A DNA stretch of 64,000 nt from Bacillota bacterium (GTDB lineage Bacteria; Bacillota; JAAYKD01). Shown piece by piece: positions 40,035-61,725 of the stretch. Below the pieces are notes generated by a model. That model saw only the letters and a program-made list of their open reading frames with translations. It was not told the origin of the DNA and did not search any database. The DNA lies in NCBI GenBank assembly GCA_963666425.2, contig OY762825.2, forward strand, positions 2,496,001 to 2,560,000, written 5' to 3'. The translations under genes and the position numbers were made by a program. Numbering within the stretch: position 1 is the stretch's first letter; the number at the start of each line of letters is the position of its first letter.

Positions 40035-40035
40035 A

Positions 40036-41442: not shown

Positions 41443-41561
41443 AATCATGGTGATTGCAGGAGCAGCCAATTGGAAATTCAGCTGAATAGTCAATCTGGAT
41501 GGTGGCTTGCAGTCAGGCGACGCAGTCATCGGACCGATCTGGTTGGGAGGGAGAAAGTAAG

Positions 41562-42869
41562 ATGCTGTTTCAAAACATTGCTTTTCTCGATGAGCATAAC
41601 AACGTGATTCCAAACGGTTATGTTGCTGTCGAGAATAGGAGAATTGCCTATACAGGCGAGACACCGCCGCAGGGCGATTTCGGTGAATGCTACTGTGGCG
41701 AAGGAAAACTGTTGCTGCCTGGATTTGTCAACAGCCACAGCCACACGCCGATGACGCTGCTGCGAGGCTACGGAGAAAACATGGCGTTGGCGTCTTGGCT
41801 GAACAATTGCGTTTTTCCGTTTGAAGCACACTGGAAGCCGGCTGAAATCTACTATGCTACCCTTTTGGGCATTGCCGAAATGGCTCGTTTCGGTATTGTC
41901 TCTACGACGGATATGTACTATTTTGTGCCCCAGATCGCGGATGCGTTTTTATCAGCCGGCATGAAGGCAAATCTTTCTCATACCATCGTCGGTACTTACG
42001 GCGGCGATTTTAACCGTTCACCGGTCAGTCTGGAAACCAGGCGGGTTCATTCGGAGTATCACGGCGCCGATGACGGCTTGATCCGTATTGATGTTGGTTT
42101 ACATGGCGAATATACTACCGATGAAAAAATGGTCAGAGGAGCAGTGAGTTTAGCCAAGGAGTTACAAACAGGGATTCACGTGCATCTTTCTGAAACCAAA
42201 GAAGAAACTGAGGGCTGCCGCAGCCGTCATAAAGGGTTTACTCCTGTGCAGTATTTTAATCGCTTGGGCCTTTTTGATGTACCGGTTACAGCAGCGCACG
42301 GAGTTTGGCTGGAAGCGGAAGATTATCCAATTTTACAGGAACATCAGGTAACCGTGGCGACCTGTCCCAAGAGCAACCTGAAACTGGCGAGCGGGATTCT
42401 GCCTTATCTTACTTTGAAGCAAGCCGGAATTCGGGTTGCTTTGGGAACCGATGGTGCAGCCAGTAATAACAATTTAAATATGCTGGAGGAAATGCGCTTT
42501 TTTGCTCTCCTGCAAAAAACCAAATATAACGACCCCACTTTAGTCACACCGACAGAAGCGCTGCAGGCCGCTACCGTCAATGGCTGGCAGGCGCAGCGGC
42601 GTGAGAACTGCGGTATCCTGGCAAAAGGTTATCGGGCAGATTTGACGGTTCTGGACACAACCTCACCCTCCTGGCAGCCGGTTCACCAAATGCTGAGCAA
42701 TCTGCTCTATTCAGCCAGCGGCAGTGATGTTTGCCTGACGATGGTAGACGGCAAGGTAATTTATCGGGATGGCTGTTATCCCACCATTGATCTGGAACGG
42801 GTTTACTTTGAAGTAGAAGCTGCAAAAAAAAGAATTTTAGGCGAACTGAAAATGGAATCAGCACGATAA
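41562..42869 (+). CDS. MTA/SAH deaminase-like amidohydrolase (MtaD family)
   Basis: PGFVNSHSH, HVHLSET, AAHGV, PKSNLKLASG, GTDGAASNNNL. Confidence 0.85.
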   Translation: MLFQNIAFLDEHNNVIPNGYVAVENRRIAYTGETPPQGDFGECYCGEGKLLLPGFVNSHSHTPMTLLRGYGENMALASWLNNCVFPFEAHWKPAEIYYATLLGIAEMARFGIVSTTDMYYFVPQIADAFLSAGMKANLSHTIVGTYGGDFNRSPVSLETRRVHSEYHGADDGLIRIDVGLHGEYTTDEKMVRGAVSLAKELQTGIHVHLSETKEETEGCRSRHKGFTPVQYFNRLGLFDVPVTAAHGVWLEAEDYPILQEHQVTVATCPKSNLKLASGILPYLTLKQAGIRVALGTDGAASNNNLNMLEEMRFFALLQKTKYNDPTLVTPTEALQAATVNGWQAQRRENCGILAKGYRADLTVLDTTSPSWQPVHQMLSNLLYSASGSDVCLTMVDGKVIYRDGCYPTIDLERVYFEVEAAKKRILGELKMESAR

Positions 42870-42935
42870 AGTCACAGGGAAACCAAGTTCTGCCAGACAG
42901 TGGAAAGCAAAACCTAAAAGCAAAAAGAATTATGG

Positions 42936-42983
42936 CAAGATCTGAAATCCGAAAGGATAACTTGATTCAGATCTTGCTTTTTT
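42936..42983 (+). terminator. Intrinsic terminator
   Basis: gcaagatctgaa...ttcagatcttgc-tttttt. Confidence 0.7.
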
Positions 42984-43120
42984 GTTGAATCATGTCAGTG
43001 CAGCCAGAAACCATCGGTGAAAGAAAATTCATTTGCATGCGAAGCAAATCCGAAAGGAATTGAGCAATCTTTGTAGAATATAGTTGCGATTTTATTTATT
43101 TTAGCGAAGGAGGGACCGAT

Positions 43121-44569
43121 TTGAAAGAAAAAATCCTAGGATTGTTGGCTTTTCTAAAAGAAAAGCAAGTGGATTATGCCGATCTGCGTGTCAATGAGAT
43201 TTTACAGGAGAATATCCAAACCGAAAATCTGAAGGTGCAGAGCTTAAGCACCACCACATCCTATGGTTATGGTATCCGTGTTTTTGTGGATGGTTCGATG
43301 GGATTTGCCGCTTCGCAAGACTTTTCTCAAATGGAAGCGACTGCTTTGCAGGCACTGGCGATTGCCAAAGCCAGCCGTTTGGTGCAAAAAACTCCAATTA
43401 AACTGGCAGCAAAACCGGTCGTCGTGGATCATTACGAAACTCCAATTGAAATTGATCCGTTTACCGTAGCAAAACAGGAAAAATTGGAACTGCTGTTTAC
43501 GGCGGAAAAAGCCATGCGCCAGGCGGCTCCTACAATCTTCCGCACCCACGGTGCTTTGGGATTCCGCAAAGAATATAAGATTTTTGCCGATACCGAAGGA
43601 TCTTATATCAGCCAAACCTTGGTGGAATCTGGCGGCGGGATTGATGCGGTTGCGGTCGCCAAAGGCGAAATGCAGACACGCAGTTTTCCCAATTCAGCCA
43701 GAGGCAACTATGCGACGGCCGGTTATGAGTTTGTGCGTGATCTGCAATTGGTGGAAAACAGCGCCAGAGTGGCGCAGGAAGCGGTGGCTTTGCTGACAGC
43801 AGAAGAATGCCCTTCCGGTTATTTCGATTTGGTTATCGATCCCAGTCAGCTGACCCTGCAGATTCACGAATCGGTGGGACACCCGCTGGAGCTCGACCGT
43901 ATTTTAGGTTATGAAGCAGGATACGCCGGCACATCATTCATCAGTACGGATATGCTGGGTAAATTTCATTACGGCTCTCCCATGATCAATATCATTGGGG
44001 ATGCTACCTGCCCGGGCGGACTCGGGACGTTTGGTTATGATGATGACGGCATTGCCGCTCAGCGCATCCCGCTGATCACCAATGGCGTGGTTGAAAACGT
44101 GCTGACCAGCCGCGATACGGCGGCAGTAGCGCAGCTTTTGCCGAATGGTACCGCCAGAGCGGATGGTTGGGCCCGGATTCCTATCGTCCGCATGACCAAC
44201 ATCAGCTTGCTGCCCGGTGACTTTGAACTGGATGAACTGATCGGCGGTGTGCAATACGGTTTCTATCTGGATATTAATCAAAGCTGGTCGATTGATGACC
44301 GCCGCACAAATTTCCAATTTGCCACAGAAATCGCCTATGAAATTAAAGACGGTAAACTGACGGGCAAGATTTTCAAGAATCCGCTTTATACCGGTATCAC
44401 ACCTGAATTTTGGAACAGCTGCGACGGCGTGGCGAAGGCGAAATACTGGAAACTCTTTGGCACGCCAAACTGCGGCAAAGGCGAACCCGGGCAAGTGGCG
44501 CATGTGGGACACGGTTCCGCACCGGCCCGCTTCAGAAAGATAAAGGTAGGTGTGGCTGATGTTCAGTAA
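43121..44569 (+). CDS. tldD: TldD metalloprotease subunit
   Basis: IHESVGHPLELDR (HExxxH), RMTN, CGKG. Confidence 0.93.
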   Translation: MKEKILGLLAFLKEKQVDYADLRVNEILQENIQTENLKVQSLSTTTSYGYGIRVFVDGSMGFAASQDFSQMEATALQALAIAKASRLVQKTPIKLAAKPVVVDHYETPIEIDPFTVAKQEKLELLFTAEKAMRQAAPTIFRTHGALGFRKEYKIFADTEGSYISQTLVESGGGIDAVAVAKGEMQTRSFPNSARGNYATAGYEFVRDLQLVENSARVAQEAVALLTAEECPSGYFDLVIDPSQLTLQIHESVGHPLELDRILGYEAGYAGTSFISTDMLGKFHYGSPMINIIGDATCPGGLGTFGYDDDGIAAQRIPLITNGVVENVLTSRDTAAVAQLLPNGTARADGWARIPIVRMTNISLLPGDFELDELIGGVQYGFYLDINQSWSIDDRRTNFQFATEIAYEIKDGKLTGKIFKNPLYTGITPEFWNSCDGVAKAKYWKLFGTPNCGKGEPGQVAHVGHGSAPARFRKIKVGVADVQ

Positions 44570-45902
44570 ATCAGAATTGTATCAGATGATTGATTGGGCT
44601 GTTGCGGCAGCCGGACAGCATCCAATTCTTGTGCTCGCCAGCAGTTCAGCCGAAGGGCTCACCCGTTTTGCCAATTCAGAAATCCATCAGAATGTCTTTG
44701 AAGATGTGACCGATCTGCGGATCACAGTGATGGGAAAACAGAAAAAGAGTCAGGTTACCACCAATAAAATCACCCGGCAGGGGATCGAGCAGGCGGTAGC
44801 GGAAGCCATTGAAAATCTGAACTTATTACCGGAAGGGGAAGAGATTCCCGCTCTGGTGAACCAACCGGCTGTCATGGAAATGGAACGTTTCAATCAGGCG
44901 CTGGCGGATGAATTTTCTGCCGAACAAAGAGCGCTGCGTCTGGGAGAGCAATTGGATCAGATTCATCTGCCATATAAGGCTTACGGTCAGCTCTCCTATG
45001 GTGAAAGCGCATTGGCTCTGGGAAATTCAGCTGGGATTCGCCGCTATTTCAGAAGCAACAGCGCCAATTGCAGTGTGCTGATCTCACACGAAAATGGCGC
45101 TTCCGGTTATGCCAGCTCGGTCGCGACCCGAGGCGGTGAACTGGAATTGGCAGCCGCTTTCCGGCGTGCCGATCAAAAAGCACAGGCCAATCAAGCACCG
45201 ATTGACCTGGATATCGGTGCCTACACAGTAATTTTAGAACCCAATGCTGTTTTTGATCTGCTGATGTACACCACGCTTTTGGGATTCTCCGGTAAAAGTC
45301 TGCAGCAGAAAAGCAGTTTCTTAACGGATCGTTTGGGAGAAAAAATCTTTGACGAAAAACTCAGCATCAAAGATGATTGGGAAAACGAAAACGCCCTCGG
45401 AATCCCGTTTGATTTTGAAGGTTCTCCGCGGCAAAAACTAAACTTGATTGATCAAGGGATTGCCAGAGAAGTCGCCTACGATCTGGCCAGCGGCGCCAAA
45501 GCCGGTGTTGCCAGCACAGGACATTCTGCCGGGATGGATATGTTTGGAGCGATTCCCATCAATATCGTCGTCACTCCGGGTGAACAAACACTGCAGCAAA
45601 TCATCGCCGAAACCAAGCAGGGCTTACTGGTTACTCGTTTTCACTATATGAATCCGGTCAATCCGCGTCAAGCCCTGTTAACCGGACTGACACGGGACGG
45701 GTTTTATCAAATTGAAAACGGTGTGGTGACTGCCGCTGTGAACAACATGCGCATGACCGAAAGTATGCTGAAAGCGTTCAACCAAATTGAGGCAATCAGC
45801 AGCGACTGCGAGCGGCTTTCCGCTTTTGTCGGCAATGTTTATGTTCCGGCAATGAAGATCAATCAATTCCATTTCACCGGCAAGACCGGTGTGAAGAAAT
45901 AA
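44559..45902 (+). CDS. TldE/PmbA partner subunit
   Basis: TRFANS, YTVILEP, PFDFEG, STGH, TGLTRDG; no HExxxH; overlaps the tldD stop. Confidence 0.88.
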   Translation: MFSKSELYQMIDWAVAAAGQHPILVLASSSAEGLTRFANSEIHQNVFEDVTDLRITVMGKQKKSQVTTNKITRQGIEQAVAEAIENLNLLPEGEEIPALVNQPAVMEMERFNQALADEFSAEQRALRLGEQLDQIHLPYKAYGQLSYGESALALGNSAGIRRYFRSNSANCSVLISHENGASGYASSVATRGGELELAAAFRRADQKAQANQAPIDLDIGAYTVILEPNAVFDLLMYTTLLGFSGKSLQQKSSFLTDRLGEKIFDEKLSIKDDWENENALGIPFDFEGSPRQKLNLIDQGIAREVAYDLASGAKAGVASTGHSAGMDMFGAIPINIVVTPGEQTLQQIIAETKQGLLVTRFHYMNPVNPRQALLTGLTRDGFYQIENGVVTAAVNNMRMTESMLKAFNQIEAISSDCERLSAFVGNVYVPAMKINQFHFTGKTGVKK

Positions 45903-46075
45903 CGATCGGATCGATCTCTTGCTCAATGCGTCCGTACGAAAACCATGATTGTGGGTTTCGTGCGGACGTTTTTGCTGTAGAAACAAGTTGAAGCTGCCGT
46001 TGGTTTTGAGTTCTGATGGCACACAGAGGAGCAATTAAAAAAGATTTCAGAAAATCGGATTTTAAAAGGTTAATC

Positions 46076-46104
46076 TTGACAAAACTGCCAATTGGATGTA
46101 TAAT
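46076..46104 (+). promoter_or_regulatory. Sigma-A promoter ~265 nt upstream of carD-like gene
   Basis: Perfect TTGACA-17-TATAAT. Confidence 0.8.
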
Positions 46105-46201
46105 AAACCCATCAAGCGAACGAATCAGAGATAAAACAGACGGAATTTTCTTAAAATAGGTGCGAATCCGATCAACGGTACAAGAATAAAGCAATGAAAA
46201 C

Positions 46202-46260
46202 AACGTGCAGTTTGCTGAGCGGAACGTAAGTCCAGTTGTGGCAAACTGTACGTTTTTTTT
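46202..46260 (+). terminator. Terminator-like hairpin inside the carD leader
   Basis: aacgtgcagtttgc...gcaaactgtacg-T8. Confidence 0.6.
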
Positions 46261-46369
46261 GCCTTGATGTTTGGTCTTAGGATTGCAGTGGTTTGGCGGA
46301 CATCAATCGGCTGAATCAAAACAAACCAAAGACCCTGTCTACCCTAGGGAAGGAGTAAGGAGTATGATT

Positions 46370-46891
46370 ATGCTAACAATCAATACCTATGTTGTCTACG
46401 GTACTAACGGTGTTTGCCAGATTACTGGGATTAAGAAAGAAAAGTTCGGTGGCAGTGAGAAAGAATATTATCTCTTGAAACCGATCAATACGGAAGGCTC
46501 GATTATTTATGTACCGCTGGATAATGTAATGCTCACTTCTAAAATTAAAAACCTCCTTAGTCTGGATGAGATTCATGAATTGATTAAACACATGCCGGAG
46601 GAACAAATAACCTGGATCGCGGATAGTAAGCTCCGCGGTGAGAAATATAAAGATATTTTTGGCCGCGGCGATCGCCGGGAACTTGTTTGCATGATGAAGT
46701 CCATTTATCGTCAGAAAAAAGACCGCACCCGGGAAGGCAAAAAACTGTGGTCCGGCGATGAAAAAGCCTTGAATATAGCGGAGAAAATTCTCTTTGATGA
46801 ATTTGCTATTGTTTTGAATATTACCCCGGAACAGGTGGCTCCGTTTATCTATCAGGAACTGCAAGCCAATGGTGATACAGATCAAACCTGA
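46370..46891 (+). CDS. CarD family transcriptional regulator (likely start 46370)
   Basis: YVVYGTNGVCQI, EYYLL, IYVP; aaggag RBS. Confidence 0.88.
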   Translation: MLTINTYVVYGTNGVCQITGIKKEKFGGSEKEYYLLKPINTEGSIIYVPLDNVMLTSKIKNLLSLDEIHELIKHMPEEQITWIADSKLRGEKYKDIFGRGDRRELVCMMKSIYRQKKDRTREGKKLWSGDEKALNIAEKILFDEFAIVLNITPEQVAPFIYQELQANGDTDQT

Positions 46892-46954
46892 TTGCTGCCT
46901 GCAATCAAATAACGTGTGGGTCAGTCTGTAGGGAAACAGCAGGTTCAGAATGGG

Positions 46955-47626
46955 GTAGGGAACGGTCTTGACCGTTCCCTATAATTTACACATGGGACAT
47001 CAATTGTTTTCAGCACCAAGCGAGGGAATAATTATAGCCTAGCGCAATAGCAGGATGGCGCAAAGGTAGGGAACGGTCTTGACCGTTCCGCACGCAGCTT
47101 TTTACGATGATTGTGCAAGGAGTACGAACGCGCAAAGGTAGGGAACGGTCTTGACCGTTCCGCACGCAGCTTTTTACGATGAGTGTGCAAGGAATACGAA
47201 CGCGCAATGGTAGGGAACGGTCTTGACCGTTCCGCACGCAGCTTTTTACGATGAGTGTGCAAGGAGTACGAACGCACAATGGTAGGGAACGGTCTTGACC
47301 GTTCCGCACGCAGCTTTTTACGATGATTGTGCAAGGAATACGAACGCGCAAAGGTAGGGAACGGTCTTGACCGTTTCAAGTGTAACATGATTTAATTATC
47401 ATCGCAAAACGATGGTACGTAACGCTAGGACGGAGTCACGCGGAACGGTCTTGACCGTTCCGCTACGCAGCTTTTTACATAGTGATATCAACACCGCAAA
47501 ACGAGGATGCTACGCTGGGACATCAATTGTTTTCAGCACCAAGCGATGGAATAATTATAGCCTAGCGCAATAGCAGGATGGCGCAAAGGTAGGGAACGGT
47601 CTTGACCGTTCCGCACGTAGCTTTTA
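46955..47626. repeat. GTAG-type REP-like palindrome cluster (8 copies)
   Basis: GTAGGGAACGGTCTTGACCGTTCC at 46955, 47066, 47138, 47210, 47282, 47354 (3' end diverged) and 47589, plus a core without GTAG at 47442; five copies in 72-bp phase. Confidence 0.9.
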
Positions 47627-47954
47627 CGAAGACTGTGCAAGTACAAAGGACGCTCATTAGTGTAGAGAAACGGTTTCTGGAGTTGGAGAAGCTTTTTCGT
47701 AGAGCAGTAAGGATTGCTTTGCAGAACAAATCAAAAAATCACGGCGGCAGTCTGGCATGCTGCCGTGATTTCTTATTTTTACTGTTCATAAAGAAAGGAT
47801 CCTAAAAACACAAGGCTGCACAGGAGATTGACTCAAAGAGCAAGAAATAAGAGAGAAACCTAAAAGCGGCCGGTTTGGCAAGGCAGTTTCGCTCTGCTGA
47901 CGCCCTGCCGGAAAAAATTCTGTAAGCAACAAGCGGAAAAATAGAAAATGAGGA

Positions 47955-49070
47955 ATGAATATGGAAAATAAACTCGTATTGCCGCATGGAACCGTAAGAT
48001 TGCCGGCATTTTTCCCGGACGGCACCTATGGTGTGGTGCGTTGCCTGGATATGGAGGATCTGGAACGCTGTCAGGTTCAGGGCATTGTAATGAACAGTTA
48101 TCATTTACTGACCAAACCCGGCTTGGCGACGATCAAAGCGGTGGGCGGGCTGCATGCTTTTACCGGTTGGCAGCATCCGATCCTGACAGACTCCGGTGGA
48201 TTTCAAGTTTTTTCATTAATACGTCAAAATCCTAAATTCGGTGAGATCAGAAAAAATGAAATTGTTTTCCGGCCGGATAATAGCAATGAGAAGATCGTTT
48301 TCACTCCGGAAAAATGTATTCAGGCACAGTTTACATATGGCTCGGATATCATGATGTGTCTGGACTACTGCACGCAACCGGATGACAGCGATGAAGTCAA
48401 CCAATTCTCAGTGGAAGTCACAGTAGCTTGGGCAAAGCGCTGTAAAGCGGAGTACCTTGTGCAGATGAAGGCGAGAAAGATCGATCCCGCTAAACGGCCG
48501 TTGCTTTTTGCGATTATCCAGGGCGGCGGCAACAAAACAATGCGCAAATGGTGCGCAGAACAGCTGAAAGAAATCGGTTTTGACGGTTATGGTTTTGGCG
48601 GTTGGCCGATGGACAAAGAGGGCAAGCTCATCGAGGATATCCTGCATTTTACAGCGGACTTAATGCCGGATGAGACGCCGAAATATGCGATGGGTCTGGG
48701 CAAACCGGAAGACATCGGCGCCTGTATCAAGATGGGTTATAATTTGTTTGATTGTGTGATTCCCACCAGAGAAGCCAGACATAATCGGCTGTATGTGTTT
48801 GACAGCGACAATGCCAGCGATGCAGCCAATTATCATTATCATTACATTATGGATGATACCCATTACCGCGATCCGCAGCCAATTTCAGAGCAGTGTGACT
48901 GCCTGACTTGCCGCCGTTATTCCAGAGCATATCTGAGACATTTATATAAAGTAGGCGACTCACTCGGTTTCCGCTTGGCGACCCTGCATAATGTGCGTTT
49001 CTATACCCAGCTGATGGAGAAATACCAAGCTGAGAATATACAGGCTGGGGACACTGATGAGAAGCGTTGA
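47955..49070 (+). CDS. tgt: tRNA-guanine transglycosylase family protein (divergent)
   Basis: LTDSGGFQVFSL, IQGG, MGLG, FDCVIPTR, zinc site CDCLTC...H. Confidence 0.88.
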   Translation: MNMENKLVLPHGTVRLPAFFPDGTYGVVRCLDMEDLERCQVQGIVMNSYHLLTKPGLATIKAVGGLHAFTGWQHPILTDSGGFQVFSLIRQNPKFGEIRKNEIVFRPDNSNEKIVFTPEKCIQAQFTYGSDIMMCLDYCTQPDDSDEVNQFSVEVTVAWAKRCKAEYLVQMKARKIDPAKRPLLFAIIQGGGNKTMRKWCAEQLKEIGFDGYGFGGWPMDKEGKLIEDILHFTADLMPDETPKYAMGLGKPEDIGACIKMGYNLFDCVIPTREARHNRLYVFDSDNASDAANYHYHYIMDDTHYRDPQPISEQCDCLTCRRYSRAYLRHLYKVGDSLGFRLATLHNVRFYTQLMEKYQAENIQAGDTDEKR

Positions 49071-49851
49071 GGAGATCGACTGCCTGATCCGCGCTGCCAA
49101 GAAATATACCGGCTTATCTCCTGAGCTGATCACACGAATTTGTCAGCAGGAATATCTCAAATATAAAAAAGAAAAAGATTTGCTCAAAGCGATTCGAAAA
49201 GAGATCCATATCATTTATGGATCTTATCTTAAGGAAGATGCAATTCCTGACTTGCGGCAGCTGCTTGTATCATGGCAGCCGGCTGACGGCTCGCCGGCGG
49301 AATTAGCCGACCAACTGCTGCAGTTGCATGCGTCTACGCGGGAACGCTTTCCGGAAATCAAAGAATTCTATGCGCATTTGAGCGGTTTTCTGCGGCAAGA
49401 GGATCGGGTGCTGGACTTAGGCTGCGGTTTAAATCCCTGTGCCATCTACTGGTTCCCGGCCAGACCATTGAGTTATTGCGCATATGATCTCAATCACGCG
49501 ACGGCGGAATTACTCAATCTTTTTTTCCAAAAATCCGGTCAGACAGACTACCTGGCAGGCGCAGCTGATTTAATCCAAACTACACCAGCAGCCGAAGCGG
49601 ATCTGGTTCTGATGCTCAAACTCTTTCCTGTTTTGGAACAGCAGAAAAAAGGCAGAGCGTTTGAACTGCTCTCGCAGCTACAGGCCAGCCGTTTTGTCGT
49701 TTCTTTTCCAACGCGCAGTTTGGGCGGGAAACGCAAAGGGATGGAAAAATTCTATAGCGAATTCTTCCTTAGCCGGTTGCCCAGCGAATTTTGCGTCGTC
49801 CGTTCTTTTCAAATCAGCAACGAACTTGTTTTTTTGCTGCAAAGAGTTTAA
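49057..49851 (+). CDS. 16S rRNA m7G1405 methyltransferase, ArmA/Rmt (FmrO) family
   Basis: KKY N-terminal motif, LHASTRER, DLGCGLNP, LKLFPVLE, VVSFPTRSLGG, NELV. Confidence 0.88.
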   Translation: MRSVEEIDCLIRAAKKYTGLSPELITRICQQEYLKYKKEKDLLKAIRKEIHIIYGSYLKEDAIPDLRQLLVSWQPADGSPAELADQLLQLHASTRERFPEIKEFYAHLSGFLRQEDRVLDLGCGLNPCAIYWFPARPLSYCAYDLNHATAELLNLFFQKSGQTDYLAGAADLIQTTPAAEADLVLMLKLFPVLEQQKKGRAFELLSQLQASRFVVSFPTRSLGGKRKGMEKFYSEFFLSRLPSEFCVVRSFQISNELVFLLQRV

Positions 49852-49904
49852 TTTTACTGTTCCTGTCTCCATTCATCAATTTGCATGCAGAGGAAAGAGA
49901 AAAT

Positions 49905-50834
49905 ATGATCGACAACCGTGGAATATTGTATATTGTAGCGACACCGATCGGCAACCTGGCCGATTTTTCTCCCCGGGCTATTGAAATCTTAAAAAGTGTA
50001 GATTTAATCGCTGCCGAAGATACGCGAAATTCGAGTCATTTATTGCAGCACTTTGCTATCGAAACCAAGATGATTTCTTATCATAAATTCAATGAGCAGC
50101 AGAGGGCGGCGTCTTTACTGCTGCGTTTGCTGAACGGAGAGAATCTGGCGGTCATTTCGGATGCCGGCACACCCTGCATCAGCGATCCGGGCAGCCTGCT
50201 GATTCAAGAGGCGATCAAGGCACAGATCCAAGTGATCGGGATTCCGGGTGCCTGCGCCATGCTGACAGCGCTTTCCATCTGCGGCTTTAATCTGCAGGAA
50301 TTCTACTTCGGTGGTTTTCTGCCACGCAAGAAAACCCTGATCGAGCAGGAATTCCGCAAGCGGATCGCAACGCCGCAGTGCACCTGCGCTTGGTATGAAT
50401 CGCCGATGCGCCTGAAAGCAACTTTAGCAGTGCTTTGCCAGGCAGCCCCTCAGGCGGAGGTATGTCTCTGTAATGACCTTACCAAGAAATTCGAACGGAG
50501 TTATCATGGCACGGCGCCGGAAGTAGAAAAAGAAGTGATGAGCAATCCGGATTATCAAAAAGGTGAGTATGTTCTGGTTGTCAGCTTTGCCAAATTGTCT
50601 GCCGCAGTCAATGAGGCTGAAACAGGCGCAGAAACAATCTGTCATGAAGCGAAACTGGTACAGATCATGCAGCAGCAAAACTGCTCTCTGCGAGAGGCGA
50701 TGCGAGTTTTTTATCAGATGAATCACGGCAAACTCGGTAAAAAGGAAATTTACCAAGCCGGCTTGCACTTGAAGCAATTATGCCTCGGTGGTGATGCGGA
50801 AGCGGAAATACAAGAAGAATCGGATTGTCTTTGA
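49905..50834 (+). CDS. rsmI: 16S rRNA C1402 2'-O-methyltransferase (likely start 49905)
   Basis: LYIVATPIGNL, AEDTR, ISDAGTPCISDPG, YESP, LTKKFE, KGEYV. Confidence 0.93.
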   Translation: MIDNRGILYIVATPIGNLADFSPRAIEILKSVDLIAAEDTRNSSHLLQHFAIETKMISYHKFNEQQRAASLLLRLLNGENLAVISDAGTPCISDPGSLLIQEAIKAQIQVIGIPGACAMLTALSICGFNLQEFYFGGFLPRKKTLIEQEFRKRIATPQCTCAWYESPMRLKATLAVLCQAAPQAEVCLCNDLTKKFERSYHGTAPEVEKEVMSNPDYQKGEYVLVVSFAKLSAAVNEAETGAETICHEAKLVQIMQQQNCSLREAMRVFYQMNHGKLGKKEIYQAGLHLKQLCLGGDAEAEIQEESDCL

Positions 50835-50860
50835 ACAAAATGAACAGATATAATAAGGAA

Positions 50861-52681
50861 GGGGCTGTAGCAAAATGAAAAATTGCTACAGTCTCTTTTT
50901 GATGCTCCAGTATCATTTTTCACAAACGAAAAACAAGCTAATACGAAAAACAGCAGACAGAAATATAAAGGTCAGATAAAATCTCACCCAAATACAGGAA
51001 ATATTCTGATTTTTACTATTGTTAAGCCGTAAGTTTTTTAAACAATTGTCTGCCGGTGCGATTTTGTTGAATCTTGTTGTGTAATTTGTTGATGTTGTAG
51101 CCCATTGCCACCAAAAGAATCTCTGCCAAAACCTTTTTATTGCCGCGGAGCAGGAACTGACGGAAGCCGTAATCCTGCTTGATCACGCCGAAGGCTCCTT
51201 CTGACTGAATGGAACGATTCATCCGCAGCAAGATCCCCTTGGCACTGGTGATCCGCTCCAGTGACTGTTGACGCTGCTCAATGAATTTCTTGGAGACCTG
51301 CAGTTTCCTGTTTCCCTTCGATCGGGTGCATTTCTTTTTATAGGGACACGTTCCGCAATCCTCACATGCGTAGTAGGTGATCTCACTTTCAAAACCAGAC
51401 TTGCTCTTACGTTTGCCTGTATAAACTGCTCTGAGCTTCTTTTCAGCCTGACAGGTGTATTCATCCAGTGTCTTGTCATAGGCCATGTTTTCCCTCAGCG
51501 CCATGTTGCTCTTGTATTTCTTCGTTTTAGACCGCTCATAATTTTGAGGCTTAATGTAACACTGTGTGGTTTTATTTTCAAAAAAGGTGTAATTTTCCTC
51601 GCTCTCATAACCCGCATCCGCTGTGACATCTTCGTAACTTGTCCCCAGATGTGATTCCATATTTTCCAGCAAGGGTATGAGTGTAAGCTGATCGCTGCGC
51701 TCACTGGAAACCTGGACACCTGTAATATATTCACCTTCCACTCCAAGTTGGATGTTATAACCCGGTTTCAATTGCGCGTTACGCATATGATCGTCTTTCA
51801 TATGCATGAAAGTCGCATCCGGATCAATTTTAGAGAAGCTATTCCGCCCTTGGAAGGTCGTTTGATATCCGGCATACTTTTCTTTCCGGCCGAGCAGTTC
51901 CCGAAGCTGCTCGATATCCCTTTGCAACTCGCTTTTTCGCTTGCCCTTGCCGTAGACAAACGGTGCGGTTATCCGGCGCTCGAGGATCTGCAGCAAATCT
52001 TCCGACGTTTCTGCCAGAATACCGTATTTTGCAGACAGCTCAGGCAGCCACTTCGACAGTTTGTCAAGTAGCCTGCTTTCATATTTCGTCGTGCTTTTTT
52101 TCCAGACAAAGCTATACTTGTTCGCATTCGCTTCGAGTTTTGTCCCGTCTACAAACAGATGCTCAAACTTGATTTCACTCAAGTTTGCCAGCTTTTTCAC
52201 CAATTGGTAGAAAAGCTCCTCACCGCATTTTGTCAGCCGTTTACTTCGAAAACGCGCGATTTCGCTGTGGTTAGGTGCTTTTTTTCCATTGAGCAGCCAG
52301 ATGAAATTGATATCTCGCTTACATGCCATGGCGATGGCGCGGCTGGAAAAAATGCCTTGCATACTGGCATATACCATTAGCTTCAGCATGGTAACGGGAT
52401 TTGTTGCCGGGCGACGGCCTGTGCGTTGATATGCTCTCCAAAGCGGGGTCTCATCCATCTCCTCCATTATTTCGTCTAAGAGCCGCACACTGTCATCTGC
52501 AGGAATTATTTTCTCAGCAAAAAATTCGTCAAGTTTTAGTTGCACATTTCTTTTTTTCGTGCCATAATGGACACGGTGTAGTGGTTTTTTCACGATTCAA
52601 TTATACCAAAAAAACAGAGCCTTGTGTCTGCTTTTCGCAGCCACTTGGCTCTGTTTTTTTAGGCTGTTTTGCTACAGCCCC
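50861..52681 (-). mobile_element. IS1182-family insertion sequence
   Basis: Terminal IRs ggggctgtagcaaaa / ttttgctacagcccc (extending to a 21-bp perfect IR at 50855-50875 / 52667-52687) enclose an intact transposase. Confidence 0.9.
51022..52593 (-). CDS. IS1182-family DDE transposase
   Basis: VDGTKLEANANKY, DPDATFM, PGYNIQ, ADAGY, Cys cluster, RSIQSEGAFG. Confidence 0.93.
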   Translation of the reverse strand: MKKPLHRVHYGTKKRNVQLKLDEFFAEKIIPADDSVRLLDEIMEEMDETPLWRAYQRTGRRPATNPVTMLKLMVYASMQGIFSSRAIAMACKRDINFIWLLNGKKAPNHSEIARFRSKRLTKCGEELFYQLVKKLANLSEIKFEHLFVDGTKLEANANKYSFVWKKSTTKYESRLLDKLSKWLPELSAKYGILAETSEDLLQILERRITAPFVYGKGKRKSELQRDIEQLRELLGRKEKYAGYQTTFQGRNSFSKIDPDATFMHMKDDHMRNAQLKPGYNIQLGVEGEYITGVQVSSERSDQLTLIPLLENMESHLGTSYEDVTADAGYESEENYTFFENKTTQCYIKPQNYERSKTKKYKSNMALRENMAYDKTLDEYTCQAEKKLRAVYTGKRKSKSGFESEITYYACEDCGTCPYKKKCTRSKGNRKLQVSKKFIEQRQQSLERITSAKGILLRMNRSIQSEGAFGVIKQDYGFRQFLLRGNKKVLAEILLVAMGYNINKLHNKIQQNRTGRQLFKKLTA

Positions 52682-53173
52682 TTCCTTTTTTATTCTGCAA
52701 AGGCTGAATACAACAATGATCAGCATTGAATACAAGAGATCAAATCAGCAAGGCAGCGCTGCGGATCATTTTGCTCAGTCATTGATACGGATCGTTGCTC
52801 GGTTGTTATTGATGGTAGACTCAAAGTTGCAATCGATATCTAAAAGATTTAAAAGCGATACAAATTGTCCAATTTAGTTTACTTTTTCAAATTCAACAAA
52901 AAAAAGAGAGTATTTGCCGTTGACGAATGAGAAAATGATAAAAGTTCAAGCGTAATTTTTCTTATAATTAAATATATCTGTAGAAATAGATCTTTACCGC
53001 TTTTAGAAATTACTTATCGTGAAAATACAATTTTTAAAAAAAGAGGAATTTAGTGAATATTACCTAATTATGTTGTGGTTATTCTTTTAGTTGAATATTG
53101 GTGATGTTTCTGAAGTTTTTTTTACGATCGCACCGAATTTTAGGTTGACGCTTGCAGTAAAAGGGGGATTTGT

Positions 53174-55036
53174 ATGGATCAAACGAATGATCAAGTTGTC
53201 CATCTGCGGTATTCACTGAGAAGCAATCTTCTTTTTATCACGAAAGTAATTCGACAGCACCAGCCTCTTGTGATTCCGGCGATTTTTCTACGGGGTCTCC
53301 TGCAAGCCGGGTTGCCTATTCTTACGATTTATCTTACGAAAACAGTGCTTGATTTTTTCTCTTTATCGGAGCGCGTAAATACTGACCTTGTCGGTACTCT
53401 AGCAATGATGATCTTGATTTTATGGCTCGGCCGAACTGCGTCGAATGCTTTAGAAAAATGGCTAGCCATGCACGCCAACCGCAATCGGCATTACTTATTG
53501 CAGAAAATCGAAAACAAGGTTTTCACTATGGATTATGTCAATGTAGAAGATCCGGTTGGTCAACGTGCTCGTCAGCGAGCAATTCGGGCGATCAATTCTG
53601 ATACTTCCGGCGGAGAAGCGATGATCGTTCATTTTGGGGATCTTCTGCAGCACGGTTTTGGATTGGCATTCTTTGCAGCTTTCGTTGCGGTACTGAACGT
53701 TTGGATCTTGCTGGCACTCATTTCTGCATCACTGCTCAGTGTCTGGTTAACGCGGCTGGCTCAGCTTTATGAAGCTCGCCATAAGAGCGAAGAAAGCGTC
53801 ATTGAGCAGCGCTTGAATTACGTCCGCGAATGCGCGGTTCAGTATGAAAGTGCGAAAGACATTCGCTTATTCTCCATGTCCGCATGGTTTGTTGATTCTC
53901 TGCGCAAGAACACAGTGCAGATTGCTCTCTGGAAGCGTCGGATCCTTACCCGCTATTTTCTGGTGGATGCTGCCGGCGATTTGATGAATTTTCTGCGTGA
54001 TGGAGCCGCATATTTTTATCTGATCAATCAAGTCATCCATGGCTTTCTGACCCCTGGGGAGTTCACTTTTTATTTTGCCAGCATTGCAGGTATTTCCAAC
54101 TGGACGAGTCAGATGAACAGAGATCTGACACTGCTCAACAAAGCCAGCCTCGATATTGGTTATCTGCGCAGCTATTTGGATATTCCGGAGCATTCTTCGG
54201 TAACAAATGCTGCGAAGGTTCAATTTAGCAAGAACGTGGTACCTGAAATCCTCTTCGAGAACGTTTCTTACCGCTATCCGGGCGCAGCTGTTTGGACGCT
54301 GCATGACGTCAATCTTCGAATTCGTCCCGGAGAAAAACTGTCGATCGTCGGATTGAACGGGGCAGGCAAGACAACCCTAGTCAAACTGCTCTGTGGTCTT
54401 TATCAACCGACTGAAGGAAGAATTTTGCTTGATCATCTGGACATCTCCTCATTCAATCGTGAGGAATATTATCGCCTTTTTTCTGTTGTCTTTCAAGAAA
54501 TTCGAATTTTAGCGCTCGATGTCCAACAAAATATCGCTCTTTGTCTAAAGGAAGACATGGATCGTGCGCGCATAGAGCGAGTTATAGAGCAAGTAGGCTT
54601 AACACAAACTATAGCGGCTCTGCCACGTCAAGCAAAGACCCCCTTGACCCGAACATTAGAGCAAGATGGTGTGCTGCTATCGGGTGGGCAAGCGCAAAAA
54701 CTCTTATTGGCGCGCGCTCTCTACAAAGATGCTCCGGTGGTAATTCTCGATGAGCCAACCGCTGCCTTGGATCCCTTGGCCGAAGCCGAGCTTTATCAAG
54801 ACTTCAGTCGACTTGTTGAAGGGAAATCTTCGATTTTCATTTCTCATCGTCTGGCAAGCACTCGATTTTGTGACCGGATCGCCTTGCTGAAAGATGGCCG
54901 CATCCATGAACTTGGCAGTCATCAGGAATTGTTGGATCTTGGGGGAGAATATGCTCATATTTTCGAGGTTCAAGCTCGTTATTATCGCGAGAACAAAGAG
55001 GTGAGTGATTTTGATAAAAACGAAAGCAAACATTAG
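53174..55036 (+). CDS. ABC exporter, fused permease/ATPase
   Basis: TM domain; GLNGAGKT, LSGGQ, ILDEPT, ISHRL. Confidence 0.92.
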   Translation: MDQTNDQVVHLRYSLRSNLLFITKVIRQHQPLVIPAIFLRGLLQAGLPILTIYLTKTVLDFFSLSERVNTDLVGTLAMMILILWLGRTASNALEKWLAMHANRNRHYLLQKIENKVFTMDYVNVEDPVGQRARQRAIRAINSDTSGGEAMIVHFGDLLQHGFGLAFFAAFVAVLNVWILLALISASLLSVWLTRLAQLYEARHKSEESVIEQRLNYVRECAVQYESAKDIRLFSMSAWFVDSLRKNTVQIALWKRRILTRYFLVDAAGDLMNFLRDGAAYFYLINQVIHGFLTPGEFTFYFASIAGISNWTSQMNRDLTLLNKASLDIGYLRSYLDIPEHSSVTNAAKVQFSKNVVPEILFENVSYRYPGAAVWTLHDVNLRIRPGEKLSIVGLNGAGKTTLVKLLCGLYQPTEGRILLDHLDISSFNREEYYRLFSVVFQEIRILALDVQQNIALCLKEDMDRARIERVIEQVGLTQTIAALPRQAKTPLTRTLEQDGVLLSGGQAQKLLLARALYKDAPVVILDEPTAALDPLAEAELYQDFSRLVEGKSSIFISHRLASTRFCDRIALLKDGRIHELGSHQELLDLGGEYAHIFEVQARYYRENKEVSDFDKNESKH

Positions 55037-56882
55037 GCAGATCATAGCGGATGATTGGCGGATGATTCGCTTCAGCTTGAGATGTGTGAATCAATACGAT
55101 AGAAGGGCAATCCCTGCAATGTTAGCGCTGGCGATCGTGGAAATTGTAACGCCATTGATCAATTTATTCTTTACTGCGAAAATTCTCGATGCCTTGTTGG
55201 ATGCAGAGCAAAGAAAGTATATCTTTTCTTTGGCTATCTTGACGGTTTTCATAAATCTGGTCTGTGTCCTGCTGCGTCATGGATTGGACCAGATGCGAAC
55301 CTATTTCAGAGCAAAAATTGCGCAGGAATCAGATAATACTGTTGCTGAAAAGTTCACCTCAATCAGTTACGAACTCATGGAAAATCCGCAAACGAGAGGG
55401 AATTATGTCAAGTACCATAATTATGATATGTGGTATGGCGGCGTATTTATGGTGGTGGAACATTTTTTTACGATGGTGCAAGAGGGTGGAGGACTGCTGG
55501 TTTCCGGCGGCTTGATCCTGAGGCTGTTCAGTTTAGCAGCGGTGGGAGGTAGAGGGGGATTGCTCGGATTTTTCGATTCACCCTTTGCTTCAATGCTTTT
55601 ACTTGCTGTCTTTTTTACGAGCATTGTGATCAATTTTCGAGCCGACGCAGATTCCGCAAGCGCAGGACTCGCTTATGAAAAAAGTATGGAGAGCAAAAAC
55701 CGCAAATTTTCCTACTATGCTTTCGAGCTGCCCAATGATTACCATTTTGGTAAAGATATCCGATTATATCATATTGCCGAATTGCTTAATGACGAACTCG
55801 ACACTTTTTTTCAAGCTTCGCATCTTCAACGGGCAGGTTACACGCAAAATGTGATAAAAAATGATTCCTTCAGCATAGCTGCCACAACTTTTTCCATTGG
55901 TTTTTCTTACATTTTTATCGTGATGAAGGCAATTTTGGGGACAATTACCACGGGTGCTATCGTGATGTATATGGGTATTGCTGCAAATTTTAGCTCGGGC
56001 ATCAGCAGATTCAACGCGGTTATCTCAGAACTCCATTTATGCAGCCAGATGATTCTGCCATTTCGCAATATCATAAATCTAAGCTCCCCAACAGAGCAAG
56101 GTTGTCTGCCTTTACAGAAAAGCACAGAAGCTCAATATGAAGTTGAATTCCGGCATGTGATTTTTCGTTACCCCGGTGCAGATACACCTGTTCTGAAAGA
56201 TATTTCTTTCAAAATTGCGAAAGGCCAACACCTGGCGGTGGTTGGCTTAAATGGATCGGGAAAAACAACGATGATCAAGCTGCTATGTAGATTATATGAT
56301 CCGAATGAAGGGGAGATTCTCATCAACGGCAGGGATATTCGTTCTTACAATTTACAGGATTATCTCGCTCTGTTGGCCGTGGTTTTTCAGGATTTTCAAT
56401 TGTTTTCCTTCTCTGTAGGGCAAAATGTTGCCGTCGATCGGAATTATGATCCCAAACGCGTATGGCAGTGTCTTGCTCAAGCGGGAATTGAAGAGCGTGT
56501 GCGCAGCATGCCTCACGGTTTAGAGACGATTCTCTATTCGTTTCTCGATGCCGGGGGCATTGAAATATCGGGAGGAGAAGCGCAAAAACTAGCGATTGCT
56601 CGTGCTCTTTACAAGGACGCACCCATCATTATTCTGGATGAACCCACCGCTTCACTTGATCCGCTTAGCGAGAATGAGATCTATACTCACCTAAACGAAA
56701 TGATTACCGGTAAAACCGCTGTTTTTATCTCTCATCGCCTTTCCAGCTGCCGCTTCTGTGATGAAATACTCGTGGTTGATGAGGGGAGAATTGCACAACG
56801 AGGCAGCCACGACGCTCTTCTGGCAGAAGAATCAGGACTCTATTTTAAAATGTGGCAGACACAAGCGAGTTATTATAAGTAA
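55005..56882 (+). CDS. ABC exporter, fused permease/ATPase (partner)
   Basis: TM domain; GLNGSGKT, ISGGE, ILDEPT, ISHRL; overlaps the previous gene. Confidence 0.92.
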   Translation: MILIKTKANIRQIIADDWRMIRFSLRCVNQYDRRAIPAMLALAIVEIVTPLINLFFTAKILDALLDAEQRKYIFSLAILTVFINLVCVLLRHGLDQMRTYFRAKIAQESDNTVAEKFTSISYELMENPQTRGNYVKYHNYDMWYGGVFMVVEHFFTMVQEGGGLLVSGGLILRLFSLAAVGGRGGLLGFFDSPFASMLLLAVFFTSIVINFRADADSASAGLAYEKSMESKNRKFSYYAFELPNDYHFGKDIRLYHIAELLNDELDTFFQASHLQRAGYTQNVIKNDSFSIAATTFSIGFSYIFIVMKAILGTITTGAIVMYMGIAANFSSGISRFNAVISELHLCSQMILPFRNIINLSSPTEQGCLPLQKSTEAQYEVEFRHVIFRYPGADTPVLKDISFKIAKGQHLAVVGLNGSGKTTMIKLLCRLYDPNEGEILINGRDIRSYNLQDYLALLAVVFQDFQLFSFSVGQNVAVDRNYDPKRVWQCLAQAGIEERVRSMPHGLETILYSFLDAGGIEISGGEAQKLAIARALYKDAPIIILDEPTASLDPLSENEIYTHLNEMITGKTAVFISHRLSSCRFCDEILVVDEGRIAQRGSHDALLAEESGLYFKMWQTQASYYK

Positions 56883-57056
56883 TAGATAATATTATTAAAG
56901 CGCTTACAGATACCGGAGCTGCGCTGCGAAACTTTTGTTGGAATAACTGTAACCAAATAAACAACACCCATGTGGTAAAACATGCTTATTACTTTCCCAT
57001 CCTCTGATGATTTATTAGTATGGGGAGGGGATGATTTGATTGCTTATGCATAACAC

Positions 57057-57092
57057 AAAAATGCAGCAGGATTCAATTCCTGTTGCTTTTTT
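57057..57092 (+). terminator. Intrinsic terminator
   Basis: gcagcagga-ttcaat-tcctgttgc-tttttt. Confidence 0.65.
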
Positions 57093-57179
57093 ATTTTGCT
57101 TTCTTAGCTTACGATGTAATTTAGAGAATTCGTAGCCTGGAAAACTTTTTCGCAAGATGCTGCCTTTGAAATACAGAAA

Positions 57180-57245
57180 ATTTATGTTTTCTTAACGTAT
57201 TTCTCTGATCCCTTAATCCCGTCTTAATCGCTTCATCGCTATAAT
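57180..57245 (+). promoter_or_regulatory. kdp promoter with putative KdpE box
   Basis: TTTATGTTTTCTTAAC (57181-96) resembles the T-rich KdpE operators as I recall them; TATAAT at 57240-45 with a poor -35. Confidence 0.45.
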
Positions 57246-57301
57246 GAGGTACAGATTGGAAACCGAAATATCAGTCCGATCAATCCAAAGGAGTGAGCAG
57301 T

Positions 57302-57391
57302 ATGGGAGTCGTTTTGGCAGTTTCGTCGGTCATCGCGTTGTCCTTGTTTATTTATTTATTTTATGTTTTGTTCAGAGGTGAAAATCTATGA
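57302..57391 (+). CDS. kdpF: K+-transporting ATPase subunit F (29 aa, not in ORF track)
   Basis: aaggag [36 protein letters not shown] overlap with kdpA. Confidence 0.88.
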
Positions 57392-59082: not shown

Positions 59083-59087
59083 GCTAA

Positions 59088-61145: not shown

Positions 61146-61158
61146 GGTGAATGACAAA

Positions 61159-61725
61159 ATGAAAACGACAACGAAATTGCTTCGGCCCGCGTTTTTCAGC
61201 TTTCTTATCTTGACTCTGCTTTGTGGAGTGATTTATCCGGGAATTGTCACGATTGTTGCTCAGGTGTTTTTTCCTGCTCAGGCAAATGGTAGTGTCATAG
61301 CAATTACTTTGCAAGATGGTACTGAAAGATTATACGGCTCTGAACTGATTGCTCAGGTCTTTACAAAAGCGGAGTACTTAATTGGGAGACCATCTGGTAC
61401 TTCAAATTTGTCTCCCGTCAGCGAGAAACAGGAAAAACTGGTAAAAGAGCGAATAGAATGGTGGCATCAATTTGACCCGAACAACATCGCCAACATACCA
61501 ATGGACCTTGTAACAGCTTCCGGCAGCGGAGTTGATCCGAACATTTCACCGGCAGCGGCGGAATATCAAGTTGCCAGGATCGCAAAATCTCGTGGTATCA
61601 GTGAAGAAAAAGTAAGAGAGGTCATCGAGAAATATACGACCGGGAAATTTCTCGGTATCTGGGGTGAAGAAGCAGTCAATGTTCTGAAGGTCAATTTGAC
61701 GCTTGACAGTCTGCTCAAAGAATAA
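61159..61725 (+). CDS. kdpC: K+-transporting ATPase subunit C (likely start 61159)
   Basis: QANGS, GSELIAQ, DLVTASGSGVDP, VNVLKVN. Confidence 0.95.
   Translation: MKTTTKLLRPAFFSFLILTLLCGVIYPGIVTIVAQVFFPAQANGSVIAITLQDGTERLYGSELIAQVFTKAEYLIGRPSGTSNLSPVSEKQEKLVKERIEWWHQFDPNNIANIPMDLVTASGSGVDPNISPAAAEYQVARIAKSRGISEEKVREVIEKYTTGKFLGIWGEEAVNVLKVNLTLDSLLKE

Follow-up and report, generated by a model that had tools for sequence, protein, structure and literature searches.

Where do the acquired 16S rRNA G1405 methylases, genes that abolish the action of most clinical aminoglycosides, come from, and what do they do in a native host? A locus in a Bacillota bacterium bears on both questions. We analyzed a stretch of 64,000 nucleotides, referred to here as the window (GenBank assembly GCA_963666425.2, contig OY762825.2, positions 2,496,001 to 2,560,000 of the forward strand), in which a gene of the FmrO/Rmt family, rmt, stands between rsmI and a divergent tgt paralog that we call tgt2. 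We consider it likely that these genes form a three-gene cassette, gained by horizontal transfer and since fixed, whose products modify the decoding center of the small ribosomal subunit. The locus shows a natural setting for Rmt outside antibiotic producers, a set of co-inherited modifiers of helix 44, and the most faithful member of that set is an undescribed Tgt paralog. The Rmt family and the plasmid linkage of tgt and rmt are already known, and uncharacterized Chloroflexi homologs of Rmt are on record in the accessible portion of bioRxiv 10.1101/712810. In the searchable literature, which held few subscription-journal papers and lacked the original papers on the rmtD and rmtG contexts, we found no distinct Rmt-linked Tgt clade with a rebuilt base pocket, no one-sided co-occurrence of Tgt2 and Rmt across phyla, no helix-44 'super-operon' context and no displacement of a housekeeping rsmI.

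The window sits on a 2,902,649-base contig (C1, 2496001-2560000) of a 3.2-Mb genome (G000) that is 98.5% complete with 6.85% contamination. An earlier reading made from the letters alone (the sequence-only reading) had called the locus chromosomal and had described an intact 264-aa open reading frame (ORF) that overlaps the tgt stop by 14 nt and is followed by rsmI, all of which is borne out. The three genes are as follows:

47955..49070, + strand: tgt2, 371 aa, the Tgt-family paralog adjoining rmt
49057..49851, + strand: rmt (METHYLTRANSFERASE gene), 264 aa, predicted FmrO/Rmt-family 16S rRNA (guanine1405-N7) methyltransferase
49905..50834, + strand: rsmI, 16S rRNA C1402 2'-O-methyltransferase, the sole copy in the genome

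The rmt ATG lies 14 nt before the tgt2 TGA, and the overlap is exact. For tgt2, the second ATG (47961) may be the true start, being better placed behind GAGGA in the Shine-Dalgarno position. The rsmI frame is open from 49791; translation likely begins at the ATG that follows GAGGAAAGAG at 49905, which leaves a spacer of 53 nt after the rmt stop.

The rmt product matches PF07091 (FmrO) at 138.8 bits (cut-off 27) over residues 14-259 and NF000466 (Rmt family) at 261 bits against a cut-off of 250 over residues 11-262, and its gene is the only FmrO gene in the genome. The best solved structure for it is 6pi9_A (175 bits), followed by RmtB-type, Sgm, ArmA-type and RmtC-type chains. Residue roles were taken from RmtC as given in the accessible portion of bioRxiv 10.1101/712810, in which the N-terminal basic residues Lys20 and Arg50 serve 30S docking, Arg111 and Asp160 bind S-adenosylmethionine (SAM), and His54, Lys236, Arg241 and Met245 are needed for modification and not for 30S binding. 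By alignment, the docking pair corresponds to K16 and R47, the SAM-binding pair to R97 and D144, and His54 to H51, with Q196 as the equivalent of Gln212; R220, K225 and M229 occupy the positions of Lys236, Arg241 and Met245, with Lys/Arg swaps as in RmtB1 or RmtE2. The His54, Arg111 and Asp160 positions are invariant in all 53 aligned Rmt sequences, and the Met is kept in 52 of the 53. The family models and the RmtC alignment agree in describing a full-length FmrO/Rmt-family enzyme with its functional residues intact, as the earlier reading had it, and because of this family membership and these conserved residues we expect, from sequence, an active G1405-N7 methylase.

The enzyme is distant from every clinical allele compared. 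Against eight sequences drawn from plasmid records, with RmtH compared through its model, identity is 40.3% to RmtF1, 36.4% to RmtE2, 33.6% to RmtB1, 33.5% to RmtD1, 33.2% to RmtB2, 32.7% to ArmA, 31.2% to RmtG and 24.7% to RmtC. Its scores fall far short of all the allele-specific NCBIfam cut-offs (500-550 bits). RmtE2 (NZ_LC511996.1) and RmtF1 (NZ_CP095571.1) are the closest clinical alleles, yet the window Rmt is neither of them, scoring 185.8 of 525 on the RmtE model and 175.2 of 500 on the RmtF model; on the RmtH model it scores 122.3 of 500. All 1595 matching records among the 72,556 plasmids searched are below 60% identity, and a search of 5.8 billion proteins gave close relatives only at 88% (in G001, the other carrier in the genus) and 75%, with the next at 42% or less.

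A quick maximum-likelihood tree was built from 56 Rmt sequences representing 80 loci (described below) plus references, with every third Chloroflexota locus and four named ones included and with support from the Shimodaira-Hasegawa-like approximate likelihood ratio test (SH-aLRT). Here the window and G001 proteins are sister (SH-aLRT 81) to a group of RmtE2 with L018, from a Clostridiales metagenome-assembled genome (MAG), and L014, from a Lachnospiraceae MAG (support 99). All eight clinical Rmt/ArmA sequences fall on the Bacillota side, which is split with support 99 from the sequences of Chloroflexota, Armatimonadota and the candidate phyla radiation (CPR). The phylogeny therefore places the window Rmt within the family and beside the RmtE branch. 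Judged from its sequence, it is a new subfamily sister to that branch and not the source of clinical alleles. The earlier suggestion of a new Rmt allele holds insofar as the lineage is new (at most 40.3% identity to clinical enzymes), but it belongs to no named allele family, and the idea of a reservoir for a known allele fails, no plasmid record exceeding 60% identity. As for the Clostridia-like origin that was said to have been proposed, we did not find that statement in print, although our trees do put the clinical Rmt/ArmA enzymes and the plasmid-borne Tgt2 proteins on the Bacillota side.

A divergent Tgt paralog beside Rmt

Tgt2 matches PF01702 at about 339 bits and passes TIGR00430 narrowly (336.7 bits against a cut-off of 306.75). 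The genome holds two Tgt-family genes, and the canonical one (C1:182373-183434, 569.7 bits on PF01702) lies directly behind queA and encodes a protein 37% identical to Tgt2. The gene that had been read as tgt is thus a second copy and not the housekeeping gene, the canonical queA-tgt pair being elsewhere. Five of five other carrier genomes (G041-G045) likewise have a canonical Tgt elsewhere (463-530 bits) and a divergent copy beside rmt (305-327 bits). In a tree from a quick search of 74 sequences, the 40 Rmt-linked and the 34 canonical Tgts form separate clades, each side of the split having SH-aLRT 100, and the internal branch between the two clades is ~2.2 substitutions per site long.

Residues of Tgt2 were compared by alignment with the TGT of Zymomonas mobilis (e.g., 1ozm), in which we take the key residues to be Asp102, Asp156, the nucleophile Asp280, Gln203, Cys158 and the zinc ligands. 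Like that enzyme, Tgt2 has the fold family, the catalytic aspartates (D79, D137 and D266 for Asp102, Asp156 and Asp280), Q189 for Gln203, C139 for Cys158 and the Cys3His site (C314, C316, C319 and H345), and all of these residues are invariant in 39 of 39 Tgt2 sequences. We infer from them that this paralog of RNA-guanine transglycosylase is still catalytically intact. What has changed is the base-binding loop, in which GGL[S/A]VGE has become GGWP[L/M/V]D-x. The window Tgt2 reads G215-G216-W217-P218-M219-D220-K221 where Z. mobilis residues 229-235 are GGLAVGE, and it thus lacks the canonical base-recognition loop, GGL[A/S]VGE with Glu235. Across the 39 Tgt2 sequences the loop has Trp in 37, Pro in 39 and Asp in 36, with K, A, S or G at the Glu235 position; across 34 canonical sequences the corresponding residues are L (33/34), S or A (34/34), G (34/34) and E (33/34). 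Other changes are Asp22, which replaces Val at the Val45 position and is invariant in the clade, two clade-fixed substitutions (Phe to Leu136, beside Asp156, and Leu to Ala245, beside Met260) and an insertion of ~10 residues ahead of the zinc subdomain. Canonical TGT contacts guanine N7 through a hydrogen bond from the backbone NH of residue 232, formed after a peptide flip that Glu235 governs, and a proline at residue 232 removes that NH. The rebuilt loop points to a changed base specificity, although it does not show to which base. A complex prediction for Tgt2 and Rmt (alignments A2 and A3, run without controls) scored 0.00 and weighs neither way.

To define the company that Rmt keeps, one genome per species (185,579 species) was scanned with an Rmt alignment. 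At least 577 relatives were detected, and the 80 best were taken as the locus set, which comprises 59 loci from Chloroflexota, 12 from Bacillota and 4 from Armatimonadota, besides two CPR phyla and three loci without assignment. For 73 of the loci at least 1100 nt of upstream sequence was available; a same-strand Tgt2 gene immediately precedes Rmt in 60 of these and sits elsewhere in the locus in 4, and two of the seven short-upstream loci retain the tail of a Tgt gene. These Tgts are always nearer the window Tgt2 (44-68% identity) than canonical Tgt (32-39%). Between the Tgt2 stop and the Rmt start the gap is at most 4 nt in 29 of 33 pairs with well-sized ORFs, and 24 overlap, the overlap lengths being upper bounds with the most upstream start codon taken. 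Unlike canonical tgt, tgt2 is not beside queA and always adjoins or is co-resident with an FmrO gene.

The same association holds at the level of whole genomes. Among 41 relatives of the host, Rmt and Tgt2 occur in G000 and G001 only, which belong to one genus, and in each of the 36 others that gave a Tgt match the sole copy is canonical. A weak match to Rmt in another of the genomes (G006; 18.4 bits, 28% over 100 aa) was rejected as a generic methyltransferase. In 251 evenly drawn Chloroflexota genomes, Tgt2 is present in 52, all of them among the 55 genomes with FmrO, so that 21% of the sample carries the pair; these tallies include one unpublished genome (G083), without which they are 51 and 54 of 250. 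The Tgt2 profile is bimodal in this phylum, with 52 genomes at 410 bits or more and 12 full-length canonical matches at 303-322 bits. The additional FmrO genomes are G172, in which the gene lies 517 nt from a contig end, G180, in which both genes have stop codons, and G243, which has fragments only. In G180 (C209:412-1778) a partial Tgt2 match and the adjacent FmrO match carry two stop codons each, which suggests that the pair decays jointly. Of the 52 Chloroflexota pairs, 47 lie within 400 nt of each other; in the remaining five the genes are 1.3 kb apart (one pair), 6.4 kb apart (one pair) or on separate contigs (three pairs). Among 331 Clostridia genomes, counting the carrier around which this sample was drawn, Tgt2 is found in 2, both with FmrO, and one more has FmrO alone (one genome, G402, was left unscored for FmrO). 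Overall, FmrO is present in 56 of 56 Tgt2-positive genomes, so that in the genomes searched Tgt2 never occurs without it; the reverse is not true.

The two genes also appear to be co-inherited, since they have the same partners in both trees: Tgt2 of the window and G001 groups (support 95) with the rmtE2-linked fragment, L014 and L018. Tgt2 is the better conserved of the two, as RmtG and the Rmt of L088, a Clostridia MAG locus, are 49% identical and their Tgt2 proteins 77%. A reversed order, rmt then tgt2, was observed in G060 (C135:38801-40665) and G187 (C45:19732-21583), where unusually long frames (646 aa and 936 aa) could represent fusions or extensions; reversal is the prevailing arrangement in this lower-scoring subgroup of Tgt2 (480-503 bits).

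Could Tgt2 simply be an ordinary second tRNA-G34 transglycosylase, acting for example on a salvaged queuosine precursor and co-regulated with Rmt without a mechanistic link to it? Its score above the Tgt equivalog cut-off and its complete set of catalytic and zinc residues fit that explanation. So does a transporter of the Vut_1/YhhQ type that occurs in the cluster at 8 Anaerolineaceae loci, a family that we take to import preQ0/preQ1, and a convincing QueC was not found in the host's own genome, which makes dependence on salvage possible. Each carrier tested, however, already has a canonical Tgt, here behind queA, and the residues of the loop reading the 7-substituent have been exchanged in 36-39 of 39 Tgt2 sequences, with loss of the Glu235 equivalent. 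The constant company of FmrO in the genomes searched and the stop codons in both genes of G180 also weigh against it. We regard an ordinary second Tgt as possible, though unlikely.

A bolder proposal is that Tgt2 acts downstream of Rmt as a base-exchange enzyme of the 16S rRNA decoding center and not on tRNA. N7 methylation of a guanine (G1405 or a neighbor) would turn it into a good leaving group, the Tgt2 pocket, with Pro at the Ala232 position and an added Asp, would bind the cationic m7G, and m7G would be swapped for guanine, making Tgt2 an eraser, or for a salvaged 7-deazaguanine. We think this improbable and offer it as speculation. Were it true, rRNA would gain its first known transglycosylation, and the clinical Rmt genes would be the severed first half of a two-step pathway. 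Tgt2 is a candidate for a new RNA base-exchange activity.

Probable acquisition of the cassette and the single rsmI

In three other genomes of the same family (G002, G003 and G004), tldD-pmbA is followed directly by glnS, whose product is 75-82% identical to the G001 GlnS. In G001 the order is pmbA, a CarD-like gene, REP-like repeats, tgt2, rmt, rsmI and glnS, a block of ~5 kb between pmbA and glnS relative to those three genomes. The family rsmI has another, conserved neighborhood. In G000 the two genes that flank rsmI in G002 are present (50% and 72% identity), but just 94 bp separates them and rsmI is absent there, and the only rsmI in both G000 and G001 is the cassette copy, which in G000 is the one match to TIGR00096 (222.1 bits against a cut-off of 167.9). 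The 'native-looking context' of the sequence-only reading is thus contradicted by a block inserted between pmbA and glnS and by an empty native rsmI site.

The window RsmI is 38-42% identical to the family RsmIs, where PmbA reaches 65-69% and TldD 75-79%. In a tree of 43 RsmI rows it falls among Bacillota cassette-linked RsmIs (SH-aLRT 82), and the four family RsmIs form their own clade (99). The cassette probably brought its own rsmI, and this copy took the place of the native gene. Such a replacement of a housekeeping rsmI by an incoming copy would be an example of an accessory cassette turning indispensable.

Between G000 and G001, the ratio of nonsynonymous to synonymous divergence (dN/dS) is 0.05 for tgt2, 0.12 for rmt and 0.11 for rsmI, and the three cassette genes are under purifying selection. 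Their dS (0.41-0.62) resembles the values for tldD and pmbA on the flank (0.43-0.49), which indicates that the common ancestor of both species already had the cassette. The GC content of the cassette is 0.46-0.49, against 0.472 for the contig.

One further neighbor has to be considered here, because it lies 187 nt downstream of rsmI:

51022..52593, - strand: IS1182-family transposase (NF033551, 374.7 bits), outside the cassette

So short a distance would suit a recent cargo of this insertion sequence, a mobile resistance unit in transit. In G001, however, the element and the next ~14 kb are missing and the same cassette adjoins glnS, the dS values make the cassette older than the species split, its GC is near that of the contig, and no plasmid copy exceeds 60% protein identity in 72,556 records. 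We consider the cargo explanation extremely unlikely, and IS1182 was rejected as the vehicle on the G001 comparison and dS. In G000 a further ~14.4 kb lies between rsmI and glnS (glnS at C1:2561317), starting with the transposase, and DNA homology to G001 runs as far as window position 50860; this stretch looks like a separate, later insertion. It was observed to hold two ABC-transporter genes at 53174-56882 (the first with ABC_tran at 109 bits, the second inferred) and several large ORFs at 57388-63998.

Helix-44 modifiers, plasmid cassettes and a proposed role

Tgt2 is not the only recurrent neighbor of Rmt. Across the 80 loci, RsmI is adjacent on the same strand in 27, an RsmB/F-type m5C methyltransferase is a neighbor in 21, an RsmE-type methyltransferase (PF04452) in 8 and RsmH in 4, and a second FmrO paralog directly follows Rmt in 19. 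The native setting of Rmt is presumably a set of helix-44 modifiers acting together. As side observations, the second FmrO paralog in Chloroflexota is 22-33% identical to the window Rmt, scores 135 bits on PF07091 and overlaps the Rmt stop (L034, L047, L052, L064, L084, L090 and 13 more; e.g., L064:6796-7629 and 7626-9116), and the RsmB/F-type methyltransferase is often next after it.

These neighbors bear on the simplest alternative, that rmt is an intrinsic gene for resistance to aminoglycosides made by neighboring organisms and that tgt2 and rsmI stand beside it by chance. All characterized members of the family give high-level resistance, and the clinical genes on plasmids, including those with a Tgt2 gene, act as resistance genes. 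Like Sgm (PDB 3lcu), a self-resistance enzyme of a producer, the window Rmt belongs to the family (121 bits) and presumably carries out the same G1405 N7 chemistry; unlike the loci of Sgm-type producers, the window shows no aminoglycoside biosynthesis context. Selection for intrinsic resistance would moreover be weak in a host labeled Negativicutes, since strict anaerobes take up aminoglycosides poorly. The Tgt2 linkage is far too regular for chance, the neighbors are consistently modifiers of helix 44, and the pair is carried by about a fifth of the sampled Chloroflexota (52/251). We therefore regard intrinsic resistance with chance neighbors as decidedly improbable.

Tgt2 also links the locus to plasmids. 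In a tblastn search of the 72,556 plasmids, it is 55.7-60.1% identical to the Tgts upstream of rmtG, rmtD1 and rmtB2 and 70-71% identical (70.2% in this search) to the surviving Tgt fragment upstream of rmtE2, and the remaining matches (housekeeping, chromid or mis-filed chromosome) reach 39.9% at most. These plasmid records confirm the association of tgt with rmtD and rmtG and of rsm genes with rmtG that the earlier reading gave, and they extend it to rmtE2 and rmtB2. In print, the accessible part of PMC9311965 already gives tgt, rsmH and 'rsmL' beside rmtG, and that of PMC3904158 a coding sequence for a tRNA ribosyltransferase upstream of rmtG in Kp13.

The closest known system is the rmtG region (pKP13f, NZ_CP004000.1, and pEc13, NZ_MH325469.1; Klebsiella/Enterobacter), which reads rsmH-tgt-rmtG-truncated rsmI with an IS91-like/ISCR element at its boundary. 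The window has the same order of a Tgt2-type gene, an overlapping rmt and then rsmI: the 98-aa ORF after rmtG is an RsmI N-terminal fragment with 52% identity across 61 aa. Similar remnants of RsmI were looked for in the ORFs that follow rmtD1 and rmtE2 and rejected for want of similarity. The rmtG-plasmid Tgt is 56% identical to the window Tgt2 and in the same clade, but RmtG is only 31% identical to the window Rmt, and no rsmH precedes tgt2 in the window; the plasmid unit is mobile with a truncated rsmI, whereas the window unit is chromosomal, with an rsmI that is complete and the sole copy.

Nearer relatives of these plasmid units were found in Clostridia MAGs. The Tgts linked to rmtB2, rmtD1 and rmtG group (support 100) with loci L019, L035, L088 and L092, which have the order rsmH-tgt2-rmt-rsmI and are the closest chromosomal relatives found of rmtD/rmtG/rmtB2-type cassettes. 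At 69-75% identity to the plasmid proteins for RsmH, 65-79% for Tgt2 and 42-55% for Rmt, these loci are, by sequence comparison, too distant to be the direct source. Tgt2 with its WP[L/M]D loop is a marker for tracing the origins of rmtB/D/E/G-type cassettes, whose plasmid copies all lie in the Bacillota branch. On a Providencia plasmid (L010:6149-6958), a calcineurin-like metallophosphoesterase gene was observed between the Tgt2-type gene and rmtB2; it is not in the other cassettes inspected.

The accessible part of PMC12406665 reports that Sgm and RmtC block RsmF and that ArmA blocks RsmI. In the acquired cassette that we favor, Rmt, dependent on SAM, would act on assembled 30S subunits and add a methyl group to N7 of G1405, at the top of helix 44, and the cassette RsmI would make Cm1402, three nucleotides from G1405, on ribosomes bearing m7G1405. 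The cassette RsmI may tolerate m7G1405, and the displaced native enzyme would then have been hindered by it, because G1405 methylases are reported to block the host RsmI or RsmF. Tgt2 would be translationally coupled to Rmt and depend on it for its function, because their co-occurrence is one-sided, Tgt2 never standing alone in the genomes searched and Rmt sometimes doing so. In a strict anaerobe the pay-off would most likely be tuning of decoding and not drug resistance. The same rmt, moved to an aerobe, is expected to give resistance to 4,6-disubstituted aminoglycosides. Of the earlier claim that the native role is decoding-center tuning in place of resistance, the non-resistance role is plausible, but the context is acquired and not native. 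The findings suggest that clinical resistance genes began within a ribosome-tuning module. We hypothesize that Rmt incurs a fitness cost when it moves alone, with co-adapted partners of the RsmI/RsmF type and Tgt2 left behind.

Several points weigh against this account. Nine of the 73 assessable Rmt loci are without Tgt2, and no tgt was seen in the 2.5-3 kb flanks inspected around rmtF1, rmtB1, armA and rmtC, so that Rmt does not need Tgt2. The finding that Tgt2 never occurs without Rmt is partly circular, since the Tgt2 profile was built from Rmt-linked genes; the gap between canonical (at most 322 bits) and Tgt2 (at least 410 bits) full-length matches eases this circularity. Related genomes are non-independent samples, MAGs are incomplete, and the 80 loci, as the best of at least 577, are uninformative on actinomycete producers. 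The approximately unbiased (AU) test does not reject a clade of the window RsmI with the family RsmIs (p=0.07), and a translocated, fast-evolving native rsmI is possible; the case for replacement therefore rests mainly on synteny. The m7G1405 assignment is made by homology, at 25-40% identity to characterized enzymes, and co-transcription of the cassette genes is putative.

Surroundings of the cassette

Upstream of tgt2, the following features were noted:

46271..46891, + strand: CarD/TRCF-RID-like gene (Pfam CarD_TRCF_RID, 55.8 bits), the first gene of the pmbA-glnS block
46955..47650, no strand: field of repetitive extragenic palindromic (REP)-like repeats, a 72-bp tandem unit x4.4 (47058-47375) plus single copies
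47736..47771, + strand: terminator-like hairpin of 14 pairs with a T-run, from a consensus scan

The CarD-like gene is 82% identical in G001 at the same position, has no second copy in G000 and was not found at the pmbA-glnS site in G002, G003 or G004. It was rejected as a module member because it had no match in the 80 Rmt loci, and it probably lies outside the conserved module. The REP-like units each contain the palindrome GGAACGGTC-TT-GACCGTTCC, and the 20-nt core palindrome GGAACGGTCTTGACCGTTCC has 76 copies genome-wide, 7 of them in this field; 43 copies lie on C1 in 19 clusters, with further copies on C2, C16 and C17. A regulatory array specific to the cassette was rejected on account of this genome-wide distribution. 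Each 72-bp unit was also observed to match a -35/-10 consensus (TTGACC, 18 nt, TACGAT). Judging from its predicted fold, the hairpin should end the upstream unit, which would place the transcription start of the cassette between the hairpin and 47955. An Rfam scan of 40000-58000 (E<=1) returned no family, and hence no preQ1 or other riboswitch was detected before tgt2; the window has no tRNA genes.

Two observations concern the wider sequence. The small contigs C3, C7, C10, C12 and C13 of the genome are richer in GC (0.56-0.63) than the main contig (0.47), in keeping with the contamination estimate of 6.85%, and are probably foreign to this organism. At window positions 1-7680 there is an ORF of at least 2559 aa that is open at the window start.

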